A model generated the notes under the pieces. It saw nothing but the letters and a program-made list of their open reading frames with translations. It did no database searches and was not told where the DNA came from. Below are positions 4,608 through 30,600 of a stretch of 64,000 nucleotides of DNA, piece by piece. Location of the stretch: positions 83,947-147,946 of the forward strand of contig JAVCDJ010000203.1 in NCBI GenBank assembly GCA_030765845.1, written 5' to 3'. Positions within the stretch are counted from its first letter, which is position 1. Each line of letters starts with the position of its first letter. A program made the position numbers and the translations under genes. The stretch comes from Candidatus Stygibacter australis. GTDB taxonomy: Bacteria; Cloacimonadota; Cloacimonadia; Cloacimonadales; TCS61.

Positions 4608-6899
4608 CTATTTCTCTGTAGGAACCACTATCCCCCTGATAATGATATTCTGGAAGAATACAAATACGACAAATGTAGGGATAGAAGCAACAACCAGGGC
4701 AGCAAACCCTACTCCGGCACTTGTGCGCTGCATCATTTGATAGATATTCACCATCATCGTCCACATGGATTTATCCTGGCAGACAATAAAGGCGAACATA
4801 AAATTGCGGTAGGCAGCATTAAAGGCACTGAGTGCTATCACAGCCATAATGGGTTTGGAGAGGCTCATGGCAATGCGCCAGAATATCGTCCACTCACTGG
4901 CACCATCTATGGTGGCAGATTCAAAAAGTTCTTTTGGCAGTGAGTCAAAGAAGCCTTTGAGCAGGAAGATGAAATATCCGTCGGCGAGTCCGGGCAGGAT
5001 AAGTGCCCAGAAGGTGTTCAGCATCCCGAACTTTTTCATGATCAAAAAGTTAGGAATACCCATCACCATTGCCGGGAATGCCATGGTCAGCATCAAAACA
5101 AGGATGATCTTATAAGTAGCAGGCAGTTTATAACGGCTCATGGCGTAGGCAGCCAGAGGATTGACAATCAGTGCGGAGATGATCGCCAGCAGACAGTAAA
5201 TAACGGTATTGAGCATGGCTCTGCCATTATATAGCATCTCGTCCAGCACCATCACATAATTACGCCTGGTGAATTCCCAGAAGATACTTGTTTTGTGTTC
5301 TTTATAAATAGAATAGTCTATCTGGTAATGATCAATAGGCACTTCGCTGAAATCCCGCCAGCTCAAATGCCAGGCCTGGTTCAAAAGCTTCACATGCCCA
5401 TATTTATAGGTAAGATAGCTGAGCCATCTGCCTTCCTCATCAGGGGTCAGTTCCAGAAAGCGGTTTGACGTATAATTTTGCACAAAACTAAGCCAGTCCC
5501 TTTGATAATTACCGTTTTCCGGTATTTTGCGGGGCGGATAGATGAATATTTCCTGCTCATAATTTGTGTTATACTCGGTATTGAAGCTTGCCAGATCAAG
5601 CGAGCCGTCTGTGCCCGGATGCAGTTCGCGCATATAGGTTAAGAACTGCTGCTGACTTAAGGGCTTTAGTCTGATAGACCGCGAATCAGCTTCCTGGCGC
5701 ACAAACCAGCTCCAGTCAAATTCCTTAGCCAGATTGAATTTCGGATTGGTCAAGGGCAGCTCAATTTCCTTGAATTCATTATATCCCCGCTCAAAAGTGG
5801 TATTCAAATCTTCTATATCACCATATTTCTTTGCCAGCCATCTGCGGTAATCAAGCTCAACTGAGGTAACTTTCAGCCATTGCGGCTGAGCCATATTTTC
5901 AATGAAAAATGTATAATCAACAGGCAATGCCCCGCTGCGTGGCAATTCTGCAGGAATCGTGATAGAGCTGAACTGCGAATAATCAGTTTTCCAGGTCTTA
6001 TTCAGCAGGCTGATATCATCATATTTTTCTTGAACAAAATCCTGCCAGGCTCCCAACGCTTCAGGCAATAATTGAATATGGTGGATATTCAAGCGCTGCT
6101 TCACATAGTTAACCCAGAATGGCTGCAAAGTGCCATCAGGTATCGTTTCAGCCAGCTTGATCTCTTCCCAGTTCATAAAATTAGTCTGTAAACTGTCATT
6201 TATTAACCGGATCTCATTCTTGAAAAGCGGACGTAATTCAGAATTAATAAAATTACCATCCAGACTTACATATACTCTTTGCCATAACGGCAGATCATGC
6301 CTGAAATCACTATATTCAGTCAAAAAGCCGGTATAATCACCATTAAAATTTCTGCCTGTTATCCCTGTTTCTTCCAGTCGTACCTCATCCCAATTGAGCG
6401 TGGAAGTTTCATAGAGCTCATTCAAGCGGTTAAGACTGCTTCCGGTTTTCTTTTTCATATAATTACGGAATTTCCGCTCATTGCGTGGATATATCCCTCT
6501 GCCATACTGTTCCGAGATATAATAATCAAAAATATCATGTCTTTGATGATTTTCATTCAGAAATTCAAACCAGTCGTCATGAACCTGCGGTATCAGTTTT
6601 GCCGGAGGATCAAGCAATGTGAAACTGAGAGCACGGTTTTTATATTGCTCAGCCATCCTGTCGCCCAGTTCATCCATTCTGGCTTCAATATATTTGCGAT
6701 ACAGCATCTCATCATCAAAAAAGAATTGCGGATAAATCGAGAAGGTCTGGGCGTCAACATTGCTTTTAAATGAAGCAGATATCATCACCATAAAAGGATA
6801 GATCATTGTGACGGCTCCCAGCAGCAGCACGATATGTATTATCAGACTCAAAATTCTTACTTTTAAGGTTTTGCGTCCCACTTTTCCTATAATTGGCAT
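4608..6899 (-). CDS. MalG-type ABC transporter permease with a ~480-aa periplasmic insertion after TM1
   Basis: 763-aa ORF. N-terminal TM1 (IYPFMVMISASFK). The C-terminal 230 aa is a standard permease core with the EAA loop (ESATIDGASEWTIFWRIAMSLSKP). The region between carries 5 copies of an LNxxW/FxxxY/WxxFxEIxLP-like motif. Confidence 0.8.
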   Translation of the reverse strand: MPIIGKVGRKTLKVRILSLIIHIVLLLGAVTMIYPFMVMISASFKSNVDAQTFSIYPQFFFDDEMLYRKYIEARMDELGDRMAEQYKNRALSFTLLDPPAKLIPQVHDDWFEFLNENHQRHDIFDYYISEQYGRGIYPRNERKFRNYMKKKTGSSLNRLNELYETSTLNWDEVRLEETGITGRNFNGDYTGFLTEYSDFRHDLPLWQRVYVSLDGNFINSELRPLFKNEIRLINDSLQTNFMNWEEIKLAETIPDGTLQPFWVNYVKQRLNIHHIQLLPEALGAWQDFVQEKYDDISLLNKTWKTDYSQFSSITIPAELPRSGALPVDYTFFIENMAQPQWLKVTSVELDYRRWLAKKYGDIEDLNTTFERGYNEFKEIELPLTNPKFNLAKEFDWSWFVRQEADSRSIRLKPLSQQQFLTYMRELHPGTDGSLDLASFNTEYNTNYEQEIFIYPPRKIPENGNYQRDWLSFVQNYTSNRFLELTPDEEGRWLSYLTYKYGHVKLLNQAWHLSWRDFSEVPIDHYQIDYSIYKEHKTSIFWEFTRRNYVMVLDEMLYNGRAMLNTVIYCLLAIISALIVNPLAAYAMSRYKLPATYKIILVLMLTMAFPAMVMGIPNFLIMKKFGMLNTFWALILPGLADGYFIFLLKGFFDSLPKELFESATIDGASEWTIFWRIAMSLSKPIMAVIALSAFNAAYRNFMFAFIVCQDKSMWTMMVNIYQMMQRTSAGVGFAALVVASIPTFVVFVFFQNIIIRGIVVPTEK

Positions 6900-20542: not shown

Positions 20543-22485
20543 TACTTCAGCAGCAGGCATTTATTTACGGCTTCAGTTTTGCCATTGATCGCCAGTTGAT
20601 AAAAATATATTCCTGAGCCTGCACGCTTACCATTTTCGTCATTGCCATCCCAGATCACTGAATGATCGCCCTGCTCCATTATACTAGATCTCAGCTTCTT
20701 AATCCTTTGTCCTTTAATGTTATAGATAGCCAGCTCCACGTTACAATCAACAGGAATTGAAAACGATATGGTTGTGGCTGGGTTAAAGGGATTGGGGAAG
20801 CAGGATAATTTGTCAAGTTCAGCAATATTGCCGTTATCTTCGTCATCAGGTTCAGGTATTTCTATATGATCAATTGCCACATTGCCTGAATCAGCAACAG
20901 GTTCAGGAAAGTTGAATTGCTCTGGTGCATTCATATTAATCAGATAACCCTGCAAAGGTTCCAGCATTGTCATAGAGCCATACCAGCCCACACCCTCATA
21001 ATAAATTGCGCTTTCAACCTGGCTTTTGATCGCAGCTCCATTTTCCAGATCAGCTAAGGCATAATTGATCTCCTGAGCTTCCTGAGGTGCAAAAGATATC
21101 CAGTTCCAGCCATCGGTTAGCTCATAAGTATTTAACCTCACATTTACAGGAACTCCAGAATATTCCAGAGTGGACGGATTTTCAACCTCCAGTTTGTATA
21201 AGGAGACATTATCAATATGAGTCAATGATCCAAACCAACCCGTGCCCTCATAATAAATAGAGCTTTGAGTTTGACTTTTTAAATTTGAGGCATTATTACC
21301 TATGGAAGCCAGAACTGCATTAGTGGACATATCATCCCCCCTCACATTGAGCGCAAACCAGTTCCAGCCGGATGTAAATTCTTTGCTGACCGTTACTGGG
21401 GGAGGATAAAAGACAAAATCGCTGATCACCACTTCCAGATTTTCACCTATATCAGCATCAGGAAGTAACCATAAATTCAATCTTGCCCGGGCATTTCCCG
21501 CAGGAGGAATGTCATTTCCAGAATATTCCCAGGCTTCGATGATGTCTGCTTCATCAGGTGGATAATCACCCGCATCACCAGACCAGGTAACAAAATTCAA
21601 CTGGTCTTCACTCCAGTTAAAGGCACAGGAAACTTCTCCCTCTGGATAGTAGTCAAATTGATACCGGTTATCATTTTCATACCAGGGCTGAACCACATAT
21701 TGAGCAAAGGGGGTATTGGAATCACCCCAATAAGATAATTCTACATCGATCTCGTGGTAAATATTATCTATATTAGGATTAAAAGTAATCGCTTCATCCC
21801 AGGAAAAGAGTCCCAATACTGCTTCTAAAGGGAAATCAGGGAATCCATCAGCCAGAGTAAAGATATATGTCCCGTAACCCAGTTTTTCTTCACACACTAT
21901 CTCACTGCAATGCCAGAAATCACCATCATCGATAATATTCAAATGCAGATCATCATTGTCATCCACAAAAACCATATTTAAAGCATCAGAAAAATAATTG
22001 TTACCAGGTCCTGCCTGAGCTGTGAAAGTTTTGCAGATCCAATCCAGATCACCAAAACTTATCTCACGATTTCCGGGTAATCGATCAGTAAAGGTATAGG
22101 GAAAGTCAGCAAATTCATCTGGCAGAAATTCATGCCACTGTCCCCATTCTCCTCCAGATTGCGGTGGAACGTAGTCAACGGGGGTCAAAAAAGCAAAATA
22201 ACGAGTTGCTTCCGTATCATATCCTCCCCCGGTCACATCACAAGTCCAGGTGAGATTATCACTTATCAAGCAATAACTCGATGCTGACGGCTTGGGGTAC
22301 CACCATCCGCCATAAAATAGAAATACATGCACTGCATACATTTCGGGCACCGTAATACCCGTCACATGACCATACATATCCTGATCCGACTGAAATTCCG
22401 GCATCTCATCAATAAATATATCCTGTCCTGATATAATACTGCAAAGCCCAATCAGAAATAACACAAACCATAGCTTTTTCATCAT
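20542..22485 (-). CDS. Secreted protein of unknown function with T9SS/FlgD-Ig-type C-terminal domain
   Basis: 647-aa ORF with a signal peptide. Internal duplicated segment (...SIYYEGTGWFGSLT... / ...AIYYEGVGWYGSMT...). The C-terminus is FPNPFNPATTISFSIP...GSGIYFYQLAINGKTEAVNKCLLLK. Confidence 0.7.
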   Translation of the reverse strand: MMKKLWFVLFLIGLCSIISGQDIFIDEMPEFQSDQDMYGHVTGITVPEMYAVHVFLFYGGWWYPKPSASSYCLISDNLTWTCDVTGGGYDTEATRYFAFLTPVDYVPPQSGGEWGQWHEFLPDEFADFPYTFTDRLPGNREISFGDLDWICKTFTAQAGPGNNYFSDALNMVFVDDNDDLHLNIIDDGDFWHCSEIVCEEKLGYGTYIFTLADGFPDFPLEAVLGLFSWDEAITFNPNIDNIYHEIDVELSYWGDSNTPFAQYVVQPWYENDNRYQFDYYPEGEVSCAFNWSEDQLNFVTWSGDAGDYPPDEADIIEAWEYSGNDIPPAGNARARLNLWLLPDADIGENLEVVISDFVFYPPPVTVSKEFTSGWNWFALNVRGDDMSTNAVLASIGNNASNLKSQTQSSIYYEGTGWFGSLTHIDNVSLYKLEVENPSTLEYSGVPVNVRLNTYELTDGWNWISFAPQEAQEINYALADLENGAAIKSQVESAIYYEGVGWYGSMTMLEPLQGYLINMNAPEQFNFPEPVADSGNVAIDHIEIPEPDDEDNGNIAELDKLSCFPNPFNPATTISFSIPVDCNVELAIYNIKGQRIKKLRSSIMEQGDHSVIWDGNDENGKRAGSGIYFYQLAINGKTEAVNKCLLLK

Positions 22486-22502
22486 TGATCCACCTCGGTT
22501 AT

Positions 22503-24578
22503 TTAGAAGTTAAAGAGTTTCTCCCGTTCGGAATACAGCCTTTCATAAGTTTTTTTAATTATCTTATTTTCATCGCTATCCAGCTCTGGATCAATATCAA
22601 GCACCCAGCCAGCTACAGCACGGGCATGGATCAAAAGCTGTCTGTCACGCACGATATTGGCATGACGAAAGATATTCATTCCACTTTGAGCAGTCCCAAA
22701 AAACTCTCCGGGACCGCGGAGTTCCAGGTCCTTTTCTGCAATCAAAAAGCCGTCATTAGTTTCCACCATTGTCCGCAGTCTTTCAGAACCTTCCTTTGAG
22801 AGCGGATAATAAGCAACCAGGTAGCAGAATGATGCTGCACTTCCTCTGCCCACTCTGCCGCGCAACTGATGCAATTGTGCCAGTCCAAAGCGTTCTGCAT
22901 GCTCAATGATCATCACTGAGGCATTTGGTATATCAATTCCTACTTCAATCACTGTAGTGGAAACCAGCACATCAAATTCATGGTTCTTAAAGCGCGACAT
23001 GATTTCATCTTTATCTTTATTTTTCATCCTGCCATGTAATATTTCTGCCCGGCATTCAGTCATCAAAGTTGACCTTATATCTTCATACAGCGTTTCTGCT
23101 GCCAGCAGGTCAGATTTCTCTGATTCCTCGATCAAGGGACACACAATATAGATCTGTCTGCCTTCACGTACTTCTGCGATTGCATGATTATAGGCATCTA
23201 TTCTTCTGCCTTCACCTTTCCAGATGGTGGTTATTTGCTTGCGTCCCGGCGGCATTTCATCAATCACACTAACTGTAAGATCACCATAAACGGTAAGTGC
23301 CAGTGAGCGGGGAATAGGAGTTGCTGACATATATAAAAGGTCTGGATTATCACCTTTTGAGGGTATCAATGACCTTTGCATTACGCCAAAACGGTGCTGC
23401 TCATCCACAGCCACAAAGCCAATTTTATGAAATTCCACATCCTTCTGCAAAAGCGCATGCGTGCCTACTATAATCTGGATATTGCCACTTTTGATCTCTT
23501 CCTTAGTTTTCTTTTTGCCTTTATAATTGCCACCTTTTAAGAGGGCTACTCGAATATCCATATCAGCCAGATAATTTGTAAAACTCAAAAAATGCTGCTC
23601 AGCCAATATCTCGGTCGGTGCCATAATAACAGCCTGACAGCCGTTTTCCACTGCCAGCAGCATGGCAAAAAGCGTCACGATTGTCTTGCCGGAGCCCACA
23701 TCACCCTGCAGCAGGCGGTTCATCTGATAAACGGAAGTCATATCCTCCACAATTTCTCTGATCACTTTCTTTTGGGCAGGGGTTAACTTGAATTGCAATG
23801 AATTCTTTAATCGAGTGGTATAAGTCCTTTTTAATTCAAAAGCTCTACCATTTTTCTCTTTCTCGTGTCCCCTTCGTACCTTTGCCAGCATCAACTGATT
23901 ATAAAAAAGCTCTTCGAAAGAATAGCGTTGTTTTATACCTGCAACTACAGCCGGCTGGTTAGAAAAATGGATTTTCTGCAGGCTGATGCTACGTGGTTCC
24001 CAGCCAAATTTTTCCAGTAATCCTTGGGAAAGGGTCTCTTCAATATCCTTGGCATAAAGCCTGAATAGGTTATAGATCATGTATCGCAACTGTCCGATTT
24101 TCAGTTTGTCTGTAAGTGGATAAACCGGTAAAACGGAGCGGGAATGCCAGAAATTAGTTGTATCCTCCCCTTTATCGAGCACTTCCAGTTCAGGATGAAT
24201 GATCTGAAACTGGTCTCTGAATGAGGTGATCATGCCGGATACCCACACTTTTTGCCCCTGCTGGAGCATATCAGTGAGCCAGGTGCCATATCTGAACCAG
24301 GTACATAAAAGGTTGTATTCACCGTCAGAAAGCACTACATTTAATTGCCTCTGTCTGCCTCGCTGAGTTTCGCGAATGCTCACGATCTCGGCTGTCAGTG
24401 ATGACCGTCTGCCAATTTCCAGGTCAGCAATGGAGCTTTTGGCATCACGTTGAATATAATCCCGCGGGAAAAATTCCAGCAGATCATTGAGTGTAAAAAC
24501 ACCCAGTTTATTCAATAGTTTTGCCCGGTGCTCACCAACACCTTTTAAGAATTTGATCTCAGTTGAAAATAAATCCAC
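22503..24578 (-). CDS. recG: ATP-dependent DNA helicase RecG
   Basis: 691-aa ORF with a GTG start after GAGGTG. Wedge/OB N-terminus, helicase motifs GDVGSGKT, DEQHRFG, QLRGRVGRG. Confidence 0.9.
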   Translation of the reverse strand: MDLFSTEIKFLKGVGEHRAKLLNKLGVFTLNDLLEFFPRDYIQRDAKSSIADLEIGRRSSLTAEIVSIRETQRGRQRQLNVVLSDGEYNLLCTWFRYGTWLTDMLQQGQKVWVSGMITSFRDQFQIIHPELEVLDKGEDTTNFWHSRSVLPVYPLTDKLKIGQLRYMIYNLFRLYAKDIEETLSQGLLEKFGWEPRSISLQKIHFSNQPAVVAGIKQRYSFEELFYNQLMLAKVRRGHEKEKNGRAFELKRTYTTRLKNSLQFKLTPAQKKVIREIVEDMTSVYQMNRLLQGDVGSGKTIVTLFAMLLAVENGCQAVIMAPTEILAEQHFLSFTNYLADMDIRVALLKGGNYKGKKKTKEEIKSGNIQIIVGTHALLQKDVEFHKIGFVAVDEQHRFGVMQRSLIPSKGDNPDLLYMSATPIPRSLALTVYGDLTVSVIDEMPPGRKQITTIWKGEGRRIDAYNHAIAEVREGRQIYIVCPLIEESEKSDLLAAETLYEDIRSTLMTECRAEILHGRMKNKDKDEIMSRFKNHEFDVLVSTTVIEVGIDIPNASVMIIEHAERFGLAQLHQLRGRVGRGSAASFCYLVAYYPLSKEGSERLRTMVETNDGFLIAEKDLELRGPGEFFGTAQSGMNIFRHANIVRDRQLLIHARAVAGWVLDIDPELDSDENKIIKKTYERLYSEREKLFNF

Positions 24579-24711
24579 TTTTCACCTCTATCGTATTTTC
24601 TTAAGATTATGTTTAAGTAGTCAAGTAAATTCAGTGTTCTGATTTTATCCTGAAATTTACTAATCAGCATTAGGTTAGAGCTACCTGAAATCAGCTTGCA
24701 ATCAGCAGGCA

Positions 24712-24764
24712 GAACAACTTAGCATAATCTAACAAAAAAATGTCAATATGTGCTTTGTTGTTCC
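24712..24764 (+). repeat. Family-H hairpin element, copy H2
   Basis: GAACAACTTAGCAT-AATCTAACAAAAAAATGTCAATA-TGTGCTTTGTTGTTCC, followed by TCCTGATAATTTTCC. Confidence 0.85.
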
Positions 24765-24875
24765 TCCTGATAATTTTCCGGAACTGGCACCTCTCGACTT
24801 CTACTAATACTACACTTTGTTAAAATAGATGATAAATTAAAGTGTTGGAATAAAGAAGATAGATTTACACTTTCT

Positions 24876-25240
24876 TCACGTATCCCCCCCCCCAAAAATT
24901 ACAAATACACCTCAATTAACCATATTTAACATAGTGAATTATGAAATTAGAAGCAAAAATAGAAATGTAGATCATTTAACTACGAAGATGAATTTTATGA
25001 TAGAAATAATAATATATCTGGTACAAAACTTAAGTAATAAAATGATATACAGGAATTTGGCAAAAGAATTGAATAAAAATTTGGCATATAGGTTATCGAA
25101 TATCGTATCAGAACTTTTTAGGGGATTCTTAGTTAGACCAAGAAATAGACATAAGGGTAAGTACAAGAAATATTATCTGGAAAAGCTACAGTATAGGCTG
25201 GTGTTAAATGATAATTAAAAAAGGGGGGGGGGATGCGTGA
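24876..25240. repeat. 365-bp element bounded by 18-bp inverted repeats TCACG(T/C)AT-C10 / G10-ATGCGTGA
   Basis: Left arm 24876-24893 (C10 at 24884-24893). Right arm 25223-25240 (G10 at 25223-25232). One mismatch. The 329-bp interior is extremely AT-rich. Possible MITE or invertible segment. Confidence 0.8.
24934..25218 (+). CDS. Hypothetical 94-aa Lys/Asn/Arg-rich protein inside the IR-bounded element (may be non-coding)
   Basis: ORF track only. GTG start, no convincing SD, very low GC. Confidence 0.2.
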   Translation: MNYEIRSKNRNVDHLTTKMNFMIEIIIYLVQNLSNKMIYRNLAKELNKNLAYRLSNIVSELFRGFLVRPRNRHKGKYKKYYLEKLQYRLVLNDN

Positions 25241-25305
25241 TCTAATATTTTAGTTGACAGATATAAGCATTTTCTTTAAAAGAAATCCAAATATAGGAGG
25301 TGCAT

Positions 25306-25830
25306 ATGAGAAAGCTGATCATTTTTGGATTATTATTATTTTTAACAGCAAGTGCTTATGCATTTGAAAAGGGAACTGTCAATGTCGGCGGAAACGTAAG
25401 TTATTCAAGTATAAAAGCTAATTCAGATGCTGATGCTTATACAATATTTTTGTTCTCTTCACAAGCAGGTTATTTTGTTAGAGATAATATCGCTCTTGAT
25501 ATCGGATTTGATTTATCAGTTGCGGATTATGATGGTAGTGAGACTTCATTGATATTTGATATTGGGAGTCGTTACTTTATTGGTGACATATTCTATTCTG
25601 GATTTAAGGTTATGGTACAAACGTATAGTGGTGGTGGATTTAAACTTTCACAGAATTTTGTACAATTAGGTGCTGGATATTTAGTTCCTTTAGTAAAAAA
25701 TGTTGTATATCTTAATCTTGATGTCAATTATACTATGGGTATTGGAGACTATGGTGGAGATATATCCGGGACAAATGAAGAGTCAAGGCTCAATTTTGGA
25801 GCAGGAATCGAGTATTTTATTAAGAAATAA
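25306..25830 (+). CDS. Small outer-membrane beta-barrel protein
   Basis: ATG 25306 lies 5 nt after AGGAGG (the track starts at GTG 25300). Signal peptide MRKLIIFGLLLFLTASAYA. Alternating hydrophobic beta-strand pattern. Confidence 0.7.
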   Translation: MRKLIIFGLLLFLTASAYAFEKGTVNVGGNVSYSSIKANSDADAYTIFLFSSQAGYFVRDNIALDIGFDLSVADYDGSETSLIFDIGSRYFIGDIFYSGFKVMVQTYSGGGFKLSQNFVQLGAGYLVPLVKNVVYLNLDVNYTMGIGDYGGDISGTNEESRLNFGAGIEYFIKK

Positions 25831-25851
25831 AGATTTTTTGTATAATGTAAA

Positions 25852-25874
25852 AGCTCTTCATTCGAAGGGTTTTT
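25852..25874 (+). terminator. Rho-independent terminator candidate 1 after the OMP gene
   Basis: CTCTTC-attc-GAAGGG followed by TTTTT. Confidence 0.5.
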
Positions 25875-25895
25875 ATTATATGTAAATAATTAAAA

Positions 25896-25924
25896 GATCC
25901 GCTCTTAATGGGCGGTTCTTTTTT
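25896..25924 (+). terminator. Rho-independent terminator candidate 2
   Basis: GATCCGC-tcttaatgg-GCGGTTC followed by TTTTTT. Confidence 0.55.
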
Positions 25925-26003
25925 ATAGGTTTTATACGTCCTATATGACCTATAATATAACCACTTATCTAATCAAACTCACCTATAGATCAGTGAGTGA
26001 GAA

Positions 26004-26055
26004 GAACAACAAAACACGCCCCATAAATAAATGTCAGTATGTGCTTCGTTGTTCC
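26004..26055 (+). repeat. Family-H hairpin element, copy H3 (most diverged)
   Basis: GAACAACAAAACAC-GCCCCATAAATAAATGTCAGTAT-GTGCTTCGTTGTTCC, followed by TCCTGATAATTTCC. Confidence 0.75.
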
Positions 26056-26272
26056 TCCTGATAATTTCCAAGAGGCTGAGAAATATGTGATCAGAGATAA
26101 TATGTTGACAAATAGAAGGTTAAGAGAAAAGGTGAATCATTGATGTAGAGATCAGTGAGAAAGGTGAAATGGAAAAAATCTGCAAAAGAGAAAAACAGAT
26201 TATATTATCTGCAGCAGAAAGCAGAAAAGGTGAGAGAAGAAGTTTAAAAGATGGTAATGAAAGAGAAAAAGC

Positions 26273-26302
26273 TTGACATTGGAATTGGTGGAAAGCAATT
26301 AA
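26273..26302 (+). promoter_or_regulatory. Possible tRNA-Leu promoter (TTGACA 26273-26278, A/T-rich -10 near 26296)
   Basis: Consensus -35 lies 45 nt upstream of the mature tRNA 5' end. It is preceded by a ~150-nt purine-rich tract with 3x GA(G)AAAGGTGA. Confidence 0.35.
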
Positions 26303-26322
26303 GTTCAGAAGTATTTGAGTGT

Positions 26323-26409
26323 GCCGAAGTGGTGAAACTGGTAGACGCAGTGGACTCAAAATCCTCCGAGCTTACGCTTGTGCCGGTTCGAGTCCGGCCT
26401 TCGGCACCA
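26323..26409 (+). tRNA. tRNA-Leu (anticodon CAA), class II with long variable arm, CCA encoded
   Basis: GCCGAAG pairs with CTTCGGC as a 7-bp acceptor stem. D-loop is TGGTAGAC. Anticodon loop is CTCAAAA. T-arm is CCGGTTCGAGTCCGG. The 3' end is ACCA. Confidence 0.88.
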
Positions 26410-26525
26410 ATAGAAAGAAATAAAATAAAGCCCATAATGGAGGGTCTTAATACTGAATTGTTATGGTCGCTTGACTATTACTTTTTTCATATTCAAAATT
26501 TTTGAAATTTATTCGGAGGATTAAC

Positions 26526-27656
26526 ATGAAACAGAGCTTAATTTTAATTGCCCTGGTGATATTATTACTTATACCAGTATTTTCATATGCAGTATCAGAA
26601 GCTGGATTGGTATATCTATTAATGGAACCGGGATCTCGTTCTGGCGGTATGGGTCAAGCATACGTGGCACAAGTGGATGATGCTTTTGCCGGATATTGGA
26701 ATACCGGAGCAATGGCATTTAACCGATCAACCCAGTTTGCATTAATGCATTCAAACTGGCTGGGTGATGTTTTTGATGACATTTATTATGAATATTTCGG
26801 GTTCAACACCTATCTGGAAGATACAGGTAACATTGGCTTTAATGTGATGTTCCTCACTTATGGTGAGCAGGATGCTTATGATGAAGATGCAAATTTCCTG
26901 AAGTCTTTTTCTTCATGGGAAGTGGCACCTTCAATAACTTACGGTTATCAGTTGAACAAATATCTAGGAGTTGGAGGCGCATTCAAATTTATCCATTCTG
27001 ATCTGGCACCTGAAGGTACAGGAGCTACAGAGGAAGGTTTGAAGGGACAGGGAAGTACATTTGCCTTTGATTTTGGCATAAATTTAAAAGATCTTCCATG
27101 GTCTTTAAGTGATATCTTTTATGTATTTTTCCCTAACTTACTATTAATTCGCGACTTATCACTTCCTAATATTCCTGATCTTCCCGGTTCCAGTATGAGT
27201 TTAGGGCTTAATATCCAGAATCTTGGTCCAAACATAGTTTATATAAATGAAGAGCAATCAGATCCGATACCTTTGAACTGGCGAATGGGTTTTTCCTGGC
27301 AGATGTGGGAAACAGAGATATCAAGATTAACCTTTAATGCTGATATGAATAAATTATTAGCTAATCGCGATCACGTCTGGTATGAAAGGATTTATAGAGA
27401 CTGGGTAGATCAACCTCTTGATGAAGAATGGGCAGATATTATCTGGGGTACCGGAGGAGAGTTTTCATATCTTAACCTTTTGAGTTTGCGATTGGGATAT
27501 ATATATGATCGTGTAGGTGAGATTGAAGGTATATCCTATGGTGCTGGACTCTTTTATGAGCAGGATAAATTCAGGGTTGATGTAGATTTTGCAATGCAAC
27601 CTGGGGGAGACCTTCAGGACTTCAATCGCACATTCTCTATTAAAGTATCCTTTTAG
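26526..27656 (+). CDS. porV: PorV/PorQ-family outer-membrane protein (T9SS-associated)
   Basis: ATG 26526 follows GGAGGA (the track starts at 26502). N-terminal motif GSRSGGMGQAYVAQVDDAFAGYWNTGAMAF. C-terminal beta-barrel ending in F. Confidence 0.7.
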   Translation: MKQSLILIALVILLLIPVFSYAVSEAGLVYLLMEPGSRSGGMGQAYVAQVDDAFAGYWNTGAMAFNRSTQFALMHSNWLGDVFDDIYYEYFGFNTYLEDTGNIGFNVMFLTYGEQDAYDEDANFLKSFSSWEVAPSITYGYQLNKYLGVGGAFKFIHSDLAPEGTGATEEGLKGQGSTFAFDFGINLKDLPWSLSDIFYVFFPNLLLIRDLSLPNIPDLPGSSMSLGLNIQNLGPNIVYINEEQSDPIPLNWRMGFSWQMWETEISRLTFNADMNKLLANRDHVWYERIYRDWVDQPLDEEWADIIWGTGGEFSYLNLLSLRLGYIYDRVGEIEGISYGAGLFYEQDKFRVDVDFAMQPGGDLQDFNRTFSIKVSF

Positions 27657-27663
27657 TTAGTCT

Positions 27664-30600
27664 ATGAATCTGCAGAAGCGAATATATATTTTCCTTCTGT
27701 TATTACCGATATTTCTATTTGGTGGAAAGATCGAATTACAGAAGGCTGTAGCACCAAATCCTACTCGTCAGGATATACATCCTCTCGAGCAGTATTTCAG
27801 CAAATCAATAGACCGCAGGGAACTTTCAGAGCAAAACCGGGTAGTAGATAACCGCTTGCTGGTGATGCTAATAGATTTTGTAGAAGATAGCGATTCCACA
27901 ACAACCGGCAATGGAAAATTTATCTTCTCTGATGATGATTATCCGATTGATCTGGGGAAAGCTCCACATGATCAGGAATATTTTGGATATGTGATGGAAA
28001 GTGTGCGTTACTATTATGAAGCAGCCAGTCTGGGAGCATTTGAACTCGATTATGATGTTTATCCCCAGCATGATTATACTGAAGCCGATACAGTAATTTT
28101 TGCCTATACATTACCGCATGAGATGAGTTATTACAATCCAATCGGAGTAGATACCGCAACCATGATAAGCCGCTTTGAGGAATATTTTAAAGATGTGTTT
28201 GAACGGGTTGATGATGATGATAACGTGGATTTTTCCCAGTATGGTCATTTTATGATAATCCATGCCGGCTCGGATTCTCAGCATGATATTGCCGGTGATT
28301 CCCGCAGTGATATACCATCATTTTTTATCAATGTAGGTGATGGAAAAGAAGCAATAGTTGATGATGGAATAGTGATCGATCATGCCTGCAATGTGCCTGA
28401 GACTATCAGTCAAGATGGACAATACGGTGTGACCACGGCGGTTACTGCCCATGAATTTGGTCATTCACTGGGATTTATAGATCTTTACAGTACATTGACC
28501 GGTTCTCCACAGGTAGGCTGGTTTGATATTATGGATTCCGGTGGTATGGGAGATTTGATAGTAGATGAGATTGATGGTGAACTGATCACTATTGAAGGTG
28601 GCTTACCAACTCTACCCAGTGCTTGGCACAGGATACTTGCCTGGGAAGATTATTTCCGCGAACATGGGATGCTGAAGGATATTGATGAACTTGACTGGAG
28701 TGAACCAATCGGTGTCGATCCGGCAGAGAAATTATTAAGTGGTATCAATTCAGGCAATCCCTATTTCATTAAAATACCACTGACTGATACAGAATATCTA
28801 TTAGTAGAGAACCGTCAGGTTGATCCTGATGGCGATAGTGGACTAAGTTTTAAGGGAGCACTACCACAATCTGATAATCCTAATGATAGAAAATATCGGA
28901 TACTGCTTTATCCCACTTTTCCGGCAGATGACCCTCGCGACTATCCTAACTGGGAATATGATCTTTTCATTCCGGGTTGGCAGAATGAAAATGAAATAGA
29001 TAATAAGATCTATAATTATGGTGGTGGACTGGTTATCTGGCATATAGATGATGAGATCATTTTTGAGACTGGAGATTGGGAAGATGGAGTATTTTATAGC
29101 AATTATGATCAGAACACCGTTAATGCCTTGCATTCAAAGCGTGGTATCAAAATTATAGAAGCAGATGGTTTTGATGATATTGGCAATTATAATGACGGCT
29201 ATAATATCATGGGTTCGGCTTATGATCCATTCTATTTATATAATCCGCTTTTCTCAGAAAATGGAAATTTCCTGGGCTGGGATGATTCAGGTATGGTACC
29301 TGGTTATCAGCCGGTAAATGAAGATAGATTTATTCATACCGTGGAATTCAATGGTTCTTCTTTCCCGCGTCTGGAGACTAATGATGGTGATCCATTTATG
29401 TTTGGATTCCGGGATATCAGTTCATATTCGATTGATGTAGATGTTGAGAGGAGTATGTCATTTAGCTGGGGTAGTCATCTATTTGATGATATTCAGGTTT
29501 TGGCAGAGTATGAAGAGATACAGGGATTATCTAATGTGACAGATGTATTGGGATTGCCATCGCTGGCGATAGTTACTTCAGATAAGATAGAGATGATGAC
29601 CCTGGTGGGAGATAGCTGGGATAATTATCTGGAGGTGCAGATCCCTTTTGAATATCGGCCGGATCAGCCGATCCTTAGTATGGATACTGATGCTGATGCT
29701 GAAGAAGAAATATTGATAGCTTCTGATAGTGTACTGACAATTCTGGATGGGGTAACGATTTCTCAGGAAATATACCCATCTCCACTGAGTGATCTTCCGA
29801 TGTATATCAGGCTGGATGAAGTGATCAATGTTTATCCGCTGACAGATAGATTGATCATTGGTGATGAAGAATTAGACGTGCCGGGAGCAAAAATAAGCTA
29901 TGACCAGCAGCATTTGATAGCTGCCAATCGGGATGGTATCTGGTTCATTGATCCTTTAGAGAAACAGATCATTAATAAATTTGAACTTGGTCACAGCGAT
30001 GTTGATTATTATCCTGTTGTATTGAAAACACTGTCAGGTAATAATGAGTACTGTTTCCAGGCAGTTTCCAATGGTGAGATCTGGAGATTTGCCGGTGATG
30101 AAAAGAAATTAATATTCACAGCCAGTGATTATTGTGACACCGCACCCAGCCAGATATTATTATCACCACTTGAAGAAAATGGCAGGACGTGGCTTGTGTT
30201 TGCGGCAGGTGAATATTTATTTGCTATCACGAATGAAGGGACTCTTATGCAGGGGTATCCTGTTTACCTGGAAGATATAAACATCGAGTCAGGAAGTTGG
30301 CTGCAGGCATTAAAGCTCAATGGAGAATACCTGATCAGGCTGCAACGTGATAATGGCGCAAAATTTGCAGTTAATGGTAACGGAGATTATCGCCTTGATC
30401 TTTCAGCAGCTGCCGCGGGTCAGAAAAATTCTCAATACTGGTATGATGAAATATCACAGGAACTTGTCTGGTTTGGTGGAGATAAAGCATTATGGCAGGG
30501 TAGGAGATTTGAGGTTTCGGAATCACCATTGATCAACCGAGGTTATCGTAATGAAGAATATAATTCATTTACTACAATAGGATACGATCAACCACAGGAA

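Follow-up and report, generated by a model that had tools for sequence, protein, structure and literature searches.

A 64-kb stretch of DNA of Candidatus Stygibacter australis (hereafter the window) contains, just upstream of the putative promoter of an outer-membrane-protein (OMP)-like gene, a 365-bp element bounded by inverted repeats that end in long C and G homopolymers, which raises the question of what this element is and why it lies beside this promoter. Its left arm is formed by TCACGTAT followed by C10 (TCACGTATCCCCCCCCCC, 24876-24893), and its right arm by G10 followed by ATGCGTGA (GGGGGGGGGGATGCGTGA, 25223-25240). The original prediction described these arms as nearly complementary inverted repeats with one mismatch, the tracts as striking, with no others seen, and the interior as the most AT-rich sequence of the window, and these descriptions hold: 17 of the 18 arm positions are reverse complementary, C10 and G10 are the only C/G runs of at least 8 nt in the 64 kb (the next longest has 7), and the 329-bp interior, with a GC content of 25.5% compared to 38.7% for the whole window, is by a narrow margin the lowest in GC of all 329-nt windows (the runners-up have 26.1-27.7%). 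The TTGACA box noted just past the right arm and before the OMP gene (start at 25306) is also found, at 25254-25259. From these features four explanations were put forward, namely an invertible promoter switch, a miniature inverted-repeat transposable element (MITE), a slippage-prone homopolymer pair giving phase variation, and a cruciform or insulator.

Contigs spanning the locus were found by an exact-protein look-up with the product of the OMP-like gene. Seven of them, belonging to ENA, JGI, NCBI and Logan assemblies, are 100% identical across the 760 nt upstream of the OMP gene, and all carry C10 and G10 in the same orientation, while in an eighth (L008) C9A3 replaces C10A5. Thus, the tracts are not an artefact of a single assembly, as the original prediction had considered. 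The variant in L008 indicates that tract length may vary from one assembly to another, although an error in homopolymer reading is also possible. Two other metagenome contigs are broken inside or just past the element, L007 starting at window position 24937 and L010 at 25258; these breaks are likely due to poor assembly at the G/C homopolymers or to other copies of the insertion sequence described below in the sample, and are no evidence of inversion.

The identity of the element was revealed by its 94-aa ORF (24934-25218). When compared with Pfam, this ORF alone gives only sub-threshold noise. A phmmer search against 1.84 billion protein representatives retrieved six homologues (P0001-P0006), with 45-85% identity. 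In contig L011 the frame of the ORF runs on upstream into ...YYGMRWGIEEIHQQIK..., which contains a Y-2-R-3-E-6-K motif; the stretch ...GMRWGIEEIHQQIKTSFGWEK... in this same frame corresponds to the motif around the catalytic glutamate of IS4-type DDE transposases. The motif is also visible in the longer fragments P0007-P0012, which match the C-terminal part of the Pfam model DDE_Tnp_1 and the IS4/IS701 models of NCBIfam. Moreover, all the relatives of the fragment terminate, right after the stop codon, in AAAAAA-T-GGGGGG-ATGCGTG, so that the right arm of the window element is the right terminal repeat of an insertion sequence (IS). In a tblastn search with the transposase encoded in L021, residues 361-431 are found in window positions 25003-25215 with 87% identity, and at the DNA level the window is, without gaps, 94% identical to L021 over 25004-25229 and 80% identical to L018. 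The first ~110 nt of the element align with the left end and leader of the IS, and the ~1.2 kb that should lie between both parts, including all the catalytic (DDE) residues, are missing. The ORF regarded as doubtful does exist and is not meaningless, being the 3' remnant of a transposase gene; in the same way, it is true that no recombinase gene adjoins the element, but only because the recombinase gene has been deleted from within it.

The parent IS is an element of ~1.58 kb present in Cloacimonadota, with terminal inverted repeats whose core is GCATCCCCCC...GGGGGGATGC and which were seen in L018, L026, L031/L032, L044 and L056. L018 contains a 1584-bp element between CACGCATCCCCCC and GGGGGGATGCGTG that encodes a 432-aa transposase, L021 encodes an intact transposase of 431 aa, and L032 is a 1595-bp contig consisting of exactly one element, the transposases of the full-length relatives having 431-435 aa. 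Target duplications were found in several copies, namely a perfect one of 10 bp (GAAATTATTG) in L026-L030, a 12-bp one in L044 and, in L056/L058, one of 14 bp in which a single position differs. An internally deleted relative of ~750 bp (L014) also exists. All these copies come from metagenome contigs, in which joins across a multi-copy IS may be chimeric, and no matching duplications are found around the copies in L018, L031, L054 and L057. A protein search with the L021 transposase gave 59 homologues, the full-length ones mostly of 430-435 aa; most are encoded in contigs of 1.5-2 kb, as expected of multi-copy repeats, and the few that are named all belong to Cloacimonadota. In a profile search of 185,579 species genomes only two remnant loci (L015 and L016) and no full-length copy appeared, and a search of viral contigs with the end motif gave 0 matches.

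Some other arrangements of this IS family have to be mentioned. Contig L063, from Ca. Stygibacter frigidus, which bears the OMP orthologue, has two degenerate ends of the family, GGCATCCCCCTGTTTTTTTT... and GCATCCCCCCGAAATTAAAA..., at ~6625-6680 and ~330-360, so that the IS family is present in both Stygibacter species. L019 (minus strand, ~2760-900) carries an unrelated IS with a 467-aa transposase and the ends GAGACTGTTCAAC...GTTGAACAGTCTC; it was considered as a second transposase family sharing the same end, and this was rejected, since it is a different IS nested in the right repeat with its own 9-bp duplication (AAAAATGGG). Three Logan contigs of ~1.62 kb (L046, L047 and L049) are circularly permuted, with the right end of the IS joined to the left one across 11-14 nt (ATCGGTTGGTATTT; TGGTAATATAT), and the 11-nt spacer of L047 recurs beside a TTGACA in L050. 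These three contigs represent either tandem insertions at one promoter or circular or dimeric forms of the IS, and it is possible that L046 and L047 are circular transposition intermediates. L054, which was also considered as a circular intermediate, is instead a chromosomal tandem with a decayed upstream copy.

With respect to its class, the transposases P0013, P0025, P0034 and P0040 pass the Pfam DDE_Tnp_1 model, with 27.8-39.8 bits (gathering cut-off, 23), and in a 46-sequence alignment Y311, R314, E318, K325, D104 and D191 are invariant. The full-length proteins match only the IS4, IS701, IS1380 and IS1634 models of NCBIfam, without reaching any of their curated cut-offs (the best being IS4_3, with 45.7-60.5 bits against the 160 required), and give no match to the ISLre2, ISKra4 and IS256 models even at E≤10. 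A search of the transposase sequence against PDB sequences gave 0 matches. The AlphaFold (AF2) model of the transposase (pLDDT 89, pTM 0.87) was compared with the PDB by Foldseek, the top six matches being Tn5 transposase or its inhibitor form (E from 4.5e-13 to 4.4e-8, the next match having E 0.05); the best of them extends over the whole length, in 453 columns. The family is, therefore, a divergent, uncurated group of the Tn5/IS4 type.

Comparison with these relatives allows the limits and parts of the window element to be defined. Its conserved ends are CACG...CGTG, at 24877-25239 (363 bp), and the outermost T/A pair of the arms as first drawn is probably flanking DNA, judging from this alignment. 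The left terminal inverted repeat (24877-24893, plus strand) is CACGTAT followed by C10, and aligns with the left ends of L018, L044, L056 and L026, its counterparts in relatives being CACGCAT, TACGCAT or CATGCAT followed by C6. It is followed at 24894-25002 (plus strand) by a remnant of the untranslated leader of the IS left end, identified by a MAFFT alignment of left ends in which the blocks AAAATTA... and AATTAtG..ATTAGAAG.AAA.AT are in common. The junction of the ~1.2-kb internal deletion lies near 24990-25004, the BLASTN homology to the 3' part of the IS starting at 25004. The transposase pseudogene fragment, which comprises codons ~361-431 (C-terminal helices) and the stop codon and corresponds to the conserved portion of the 94-aa ORF, occupies 25003-25218 (plus strand), and the right terminal inverted repeat (G10 followed by ATGCGTG, with G6 in its relatives) occupies 25223-25239 (plus strand). 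Thus, the arms are the terminal inverted repeats of the IS, and in the interior ~110 nt of the left-end leader are joined to the final ~230 nt of the IS, in which the last ~71 transposase codons are included.

Beyond the tip, positions 25240-25253 (plus strand) would be target DNA, in which ATCTAATATTT, with TAG after it, would correspond, by analogy with L026 and L044, to the right-hand copy of a duplication of 10-11 bp. TTGACA at 25254-25259 (plus strand), 13 nt past the right arm as first drawn and 14 nt past the tip at 25239, would serve the OMP-like gene as its -35 hexamer, with TAAAAG at 25277-25282 (plus strand) as a possible, though weak, -10; due to this weak -10, the promoter is not called by a simple consensus scan. 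The gene itself (25306-25830, plus strand; RBS AGGAGG at 25295-25300) encodes an OMP-like beta-barrel protein of 174 aa, more distant homologues of which carry PF13505 (OMP_b-brl), and genes for a tRNA, PorV and a T9SS cargo protein are found downstream of it. The divergent upstream neighbour is recG (22503-24578, minus strand), whose likely -35 box is a TTGACA at 24741-24746 of the minus strand.

A direct repeat of ~75 nt (24700-24780 and 25995-26070) brackets the IS relic and the OMP gene, with 78% identity overall and a 43-nt core that is 93% identical. Each copy contains a GAACAAC...GTTGTTC hairpin; the first holds the minus-strand TTGACA that probably serves recG, and in the second this hexamer is mutated. 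Taking into account that in Ca. S. frigidus the OMP gene does not adjoin recG, this repeat may be the trace of a duplication or translocation through which the OMP cassette reached its present position.

On these grounds, the element at 24877-25239 is, with little doubt, an immobile, internally deleted relic of a ~1.58-kb Tn5/IS4-type IS that is widespread in Candidatus Cloacimonadota. According to this proposal, a copy of the IS would have entered the DNA upstream of the OMP promoter, its interior being deleted afterwards. As the original prediction had indicated, no target-site duplication can be identified: the 10-mers at both sides of the element (ACACTTTCTT, left; ATCTAATATT, right) agree in 4 of their 10 positions, with no better agreement in any other register, and the expected ATCTAATATT(T) is not present to the left of the element. 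This counts against a simple history of insertion followed by internal deletion, which needs an extra event; most simply, the left-hand duplication would have been lost by a later rearrangement or by recombination with another copy, and the duplication or translocation of the OMP cassette mentioned above could be the cause.

The tracts, of 10 residues at both ends of the window element, are of 6 at nearly every other end of ~30 copies and of 5 at a few decayed ends. They would have grown from 6 to 10 by replication slippage once the element was free of the constraint of transposition. Independent slippage to the same length at both tracts is possible but not compelling, and as candidate alternatives the tracts may have been inherited from a C10/G10 subfamily not seen so far, or one arm may have been corrected by the other through template switching. 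Today the relic most likely lacks any function of its own, its effect being at most that it takes the place of the original DNA of the OMP promoter region upstream of about -50. An orthologous site lacking the element was not found for comparison, the nearest OMP orthologue being that of Ca. S. frigidus (60% identity), in which the locus is not syntenic and the region upstream of the OMP gene is unrelated.

Other readings of the same features have to be weighed against this one. The equal length of both tracts would be expected if C10 and G10 had been inherited from a mobile master copy, which would agree with the proposal that the element is an active MITE, mobilised in trans by full-length copies and belonging to a subfamily with C10/G10 ends. 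The element is indeed small, keeps intact and nearly perfect terminal repeats and is derived from an IS by internal deletion, and other internally deleted relatives, such as L014, exist. However, it has no target-site duplication, neither a second copy nor any other end of the family is found within the 64-kb window, no tract longer than 6 appears among about 30 related ends, and end recognition by a Tn5-type transposase would probably be impaired by the 4 bp gained between tip and subterminal sequence. We consider this proposal improbable. Of the four hypotheses in the original prediction, the MITE is nevertheless the closest, although only in part, since a miniature, non-autonomous derivative of an IS with its repeats is what was found, but with neither a target-site duplication nor a second copy in the window. 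Compared with MITEs and internally deleted IS derivatives in general, the window element resembles them in its size (363 bp), in its parental IS repeats and in having no functional transposase, and differs from them in that it has no target-site duplication, that no multiple copies or mobilisation were found and that a 3' fragment of the transposase is still recognisable.

A regulatory role for the relic or its tracts is a somewhat weaker contender. In this case the element, once dead, would have been co-opted: either C10 and G10 would serve as slippage-prone contingency tracts, or the OMP promoter would be modulated by a stem or cruciform that they form over a long range. The finding of C9A3 for C10A5 in one of eight assemblies, the uniqueness of the tracts in the window, and the equal tract lengths, which preserve the complementarity of the arms, would be in agreement with this. 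In RNA folding, a long-range G10/C10 stem is formed on both strands (z = -4.1 for the plus strand vs -3.15 for the other), and in RNA of the plus strand a full 18-bp stem would be formed, with a U-G wobble in place of the one mismatch between the arms. Nevertheless, the low folding energy mainly reflects the pairing of G10 with C10 itself, and folding is uninformative for arms already identified as the ends of an IS; a scan of 22000-28000 with Rfam, by E-value, detected nothing in the element, giving a tRNA (26323-26406) and weak chance matches elsewhere. Furthermore, the G tract lies ~21 nt upstream of the -35 box, neither tract being located in a promoter spacer or an intact ORF, and the sole length variant, which concerns the distal C tract, may have arisen from an error in sequencing or assembling the homopolymer. 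The locus is essentially identical in all the available copies, which thus give no information on conservation. Phase variation through the homopolymers, as originally envisaged, is accordingly a weak proposal, and co-option in either form is unlikely.

The least probable reading, to which we give almost no credit, is that of an inverton, in which the OMP gene would be controlled by a recombinase acting in trans that flips the 329 bp enclosed by the 18-bp repeats. It is true that a short AT-rich segment lies between inverted repeats and adjoins a surface-protein gene, as in the fim switch or the Mpi-controlled promoters of Bacteroides, in which inverted repeats surround a few hundred base pairs, and that contigs L007 and L010 break near the element. 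However, the repeats are the conserved ends of a transposon and recur at many unrelated loci, a transposase pseudogene lies between them, the promoter-like TTGACA is outside the repeats and there is no recombinase gene among the neighbours, all of which separates this element from those switches. The search for both orientations that had been recommended, carried out at the contig level, gave a single orientation in 8 of 8 spanning contigs and an inverted junction in 0 JGI metagenome contigs. The dead IS relic thus remains the preferred explanation, and in terms of annotation a false lead is removed: what looked like a C10...G10 "switch" is the fossil of a transposon, and what looked like a "doubtful ORF" is a transposase pseudogene.

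As an object, the window element is an ordinary dead IS fragment, the more interesting by-product being an IS family that targets -35 boxes. Right-end flanks of the family were pooled from three routes (end motif, fragment look-ups and full-length transposase look-ups). In 21 of 24 distinct flanks, TTGAC starts 16-24 nt after the core GGATGC, corresponding to a distance from the tip of 13-21 nt with a mode of 14-15, and 17 of these 21 have an exact TTGACA. With a background probability of 0.0079 per position this gives P = 1.5e-41, and 6e-27 if a fivefold intergenic enrichment is allowed. Among about a dozen left-type ends, a single one, in L063, has TTGAC at a comparable position, and the hexamer is absent beside three 19-mer matches that arose by chance and have no transposase. 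The IS and the downstream gene are co-oriented in every case that could be checked. The possibility that TTGACA forms part of the IS was rejected, since near-identical copies (L011 and L021, L017 and L022, L018 and L024) have unrelated sequences between GCGTG and TTGACA, and therefore the hexamer belongs to the target.

Where duplications can be recognised, the duplicated block of 10-14 bp ends exactly 3 nt before TTGACA, as in L026 (10 bp, then AAC), in L044 (12 bp, then TGC), in L056/58 and in the L018/L024 and L047/L050 pairs. The insertion flanks also show a T/A-rich patch at -8 to -4. L054 contains an intact copy and, 15 nt upstream of it, the decayed relic of an older one, an arrangement that fits the repeated targeting of one promoter. 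The window relic follows the family pattern, with its tip, 14 nt, TTGACA and the same orientation as the OMP gene, and its presence beside the OMP promoter is thus explained by a family that integrates in an oriented manner, with its right (transposase-distal) end 13-15 bp upstream of TTGACA. Regarding the choice of target, the transposase may read TTGACA together with the T/A-rich patch upstream of it or, as an alternative, may contact RNA polymerase or sigma factor bound to the promoter.

Some particular insertions deserve a comment. In L031 (1231-2825) an IS copy with near-symmetric ends, located between divergent glycosyltransferase and EF-G genes, has an outward TTGAC 17 nt from both cores and no target duplication. 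In L013 (340-1584), a gene for an ISAzo13-type transposase adjoins the Tn5-like IS copy or is interrupted by it, and the same occurs in L018 (90-980) with another transposase ORF, which presumably corresponds to an IS1634-type N-terminus by its look. The sites without a nearby TTGACA are those in L013 and L018 beside these other transposase genes.

The window also provides information about the hexamer itself. It contains 30 TTGACA sites, half of them in the 12% of its sequence that is non-coding, where they are mostly found 28-170 nt upstream of co-oriented genes, a distribution indicating that TTGACA behaves as a -35 box in Ca. Stygibacter australis. From this distribution it may be inferred that TTGACA is a functional -35 box in Cloacimonadota. 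One exact TTGACA is found at 26273, 50 nt upstream of the tRNA gene, and another at 26105, and several intergenic sites of the window have the extended form GTTGACAaATAgAAG in common.

Taking all this into account, it seems probable that a Tn5/IS4-type lineage of Cloacimonadota has independently evolved oriented integration at a fixed offset from sigma-70-type -35 boxes, with the duplicated block ending 3 nt before TTGACA and the right tip ~14 bp upstream, a trait regarded until now as particular to the Mutator-like TnGBS, ISLre2 and ISKra4 elements. If so, this would be a "safe-haven" strategy, in which genes and core promoters are kept intact and relics such as that of the window accumulate before promoters, and it would support the view of the DNA just upstream of promoters as a favoured safe haven. 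Promoter-upstream targeting would then have arisen in bacteria a second time, from a structurally unrelated source. From a practical point of view, natural insertions could serve as markers of sigma-70-type promoters (TTGACA) in an uncultured phylum without mapped promoters. Moreover, these data suggest a candidate Tn5-family enzyme with a built-in site preference, which, if it reads the -35 hexamer or the sigma factor bound to it, would be site-directed by nature and related to the Tn5 transposase employed in tagmentation.

Among known systems, the IS4 superfamily (Tn5/IS50, IS4, IS231, IS701 and related groups) is like the Cloacimonadota family in its single ~430-aa DDE transposase passing DDE_Tnp_1, in the Y-2-R-3-E-6-K signature, in a predicted fold that matches only Tn5 transposase, and in its short terminal inverted repeats and long target duplications, those of IS4 itself having 11-13 bp and those described here 10-14 bp. 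Unlike this superfamily, the Cloacimonadota family stays below all NCBIfam cut-offs, has a conserved C6/G6 tract at its ends and inserts in an oriented manner anchored to TTGACA. In the literature searched, no report of such targeting was found for IS4-type elements, which is no proof of novelty.

An equivalent behaviour has been described for the TnGBS elements, which are integrative and conjugative (ICEs), and for ISLre2 and ISKra4, whose insertion is oriented, with the right repeat upstream of sigma-A/sigma-70 promoters, at 13-17 bp from their -35 box (Guerillot et al. 2014, PMC3942029). These elements use Mutator-like transposases (p-MULT) and generate duplications of 8-9 bp, and such targeting of the region upstream of promoters was termed unusual among prokaryotic transposases (PMC3942029). 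Insertion orientation was tied to an asymmetry between the two repeats, promoters being predicted on both sides of elements with near-symmetric repeats (PMC3942029). The family described here resembles them in that its insertions are oriented and lie upstream of the -35 hexamer, separated from it by a short and fixed distance, and L031, with its near-symmetric ends and TTGAC on both sides, recalls their near-symmetric elements. In contrast, its transposase has a Tn5-like fold and theirs a Mutator/IS256-like one, its duplications are of 10-14 bp and theirs of 8-9 bp, and its hosts are Cloacimonadota, absent from the phyla listed for those families. Since transposase superfamily, duplication length and host are all different, the resemblance is one of behaviour and not of membership.
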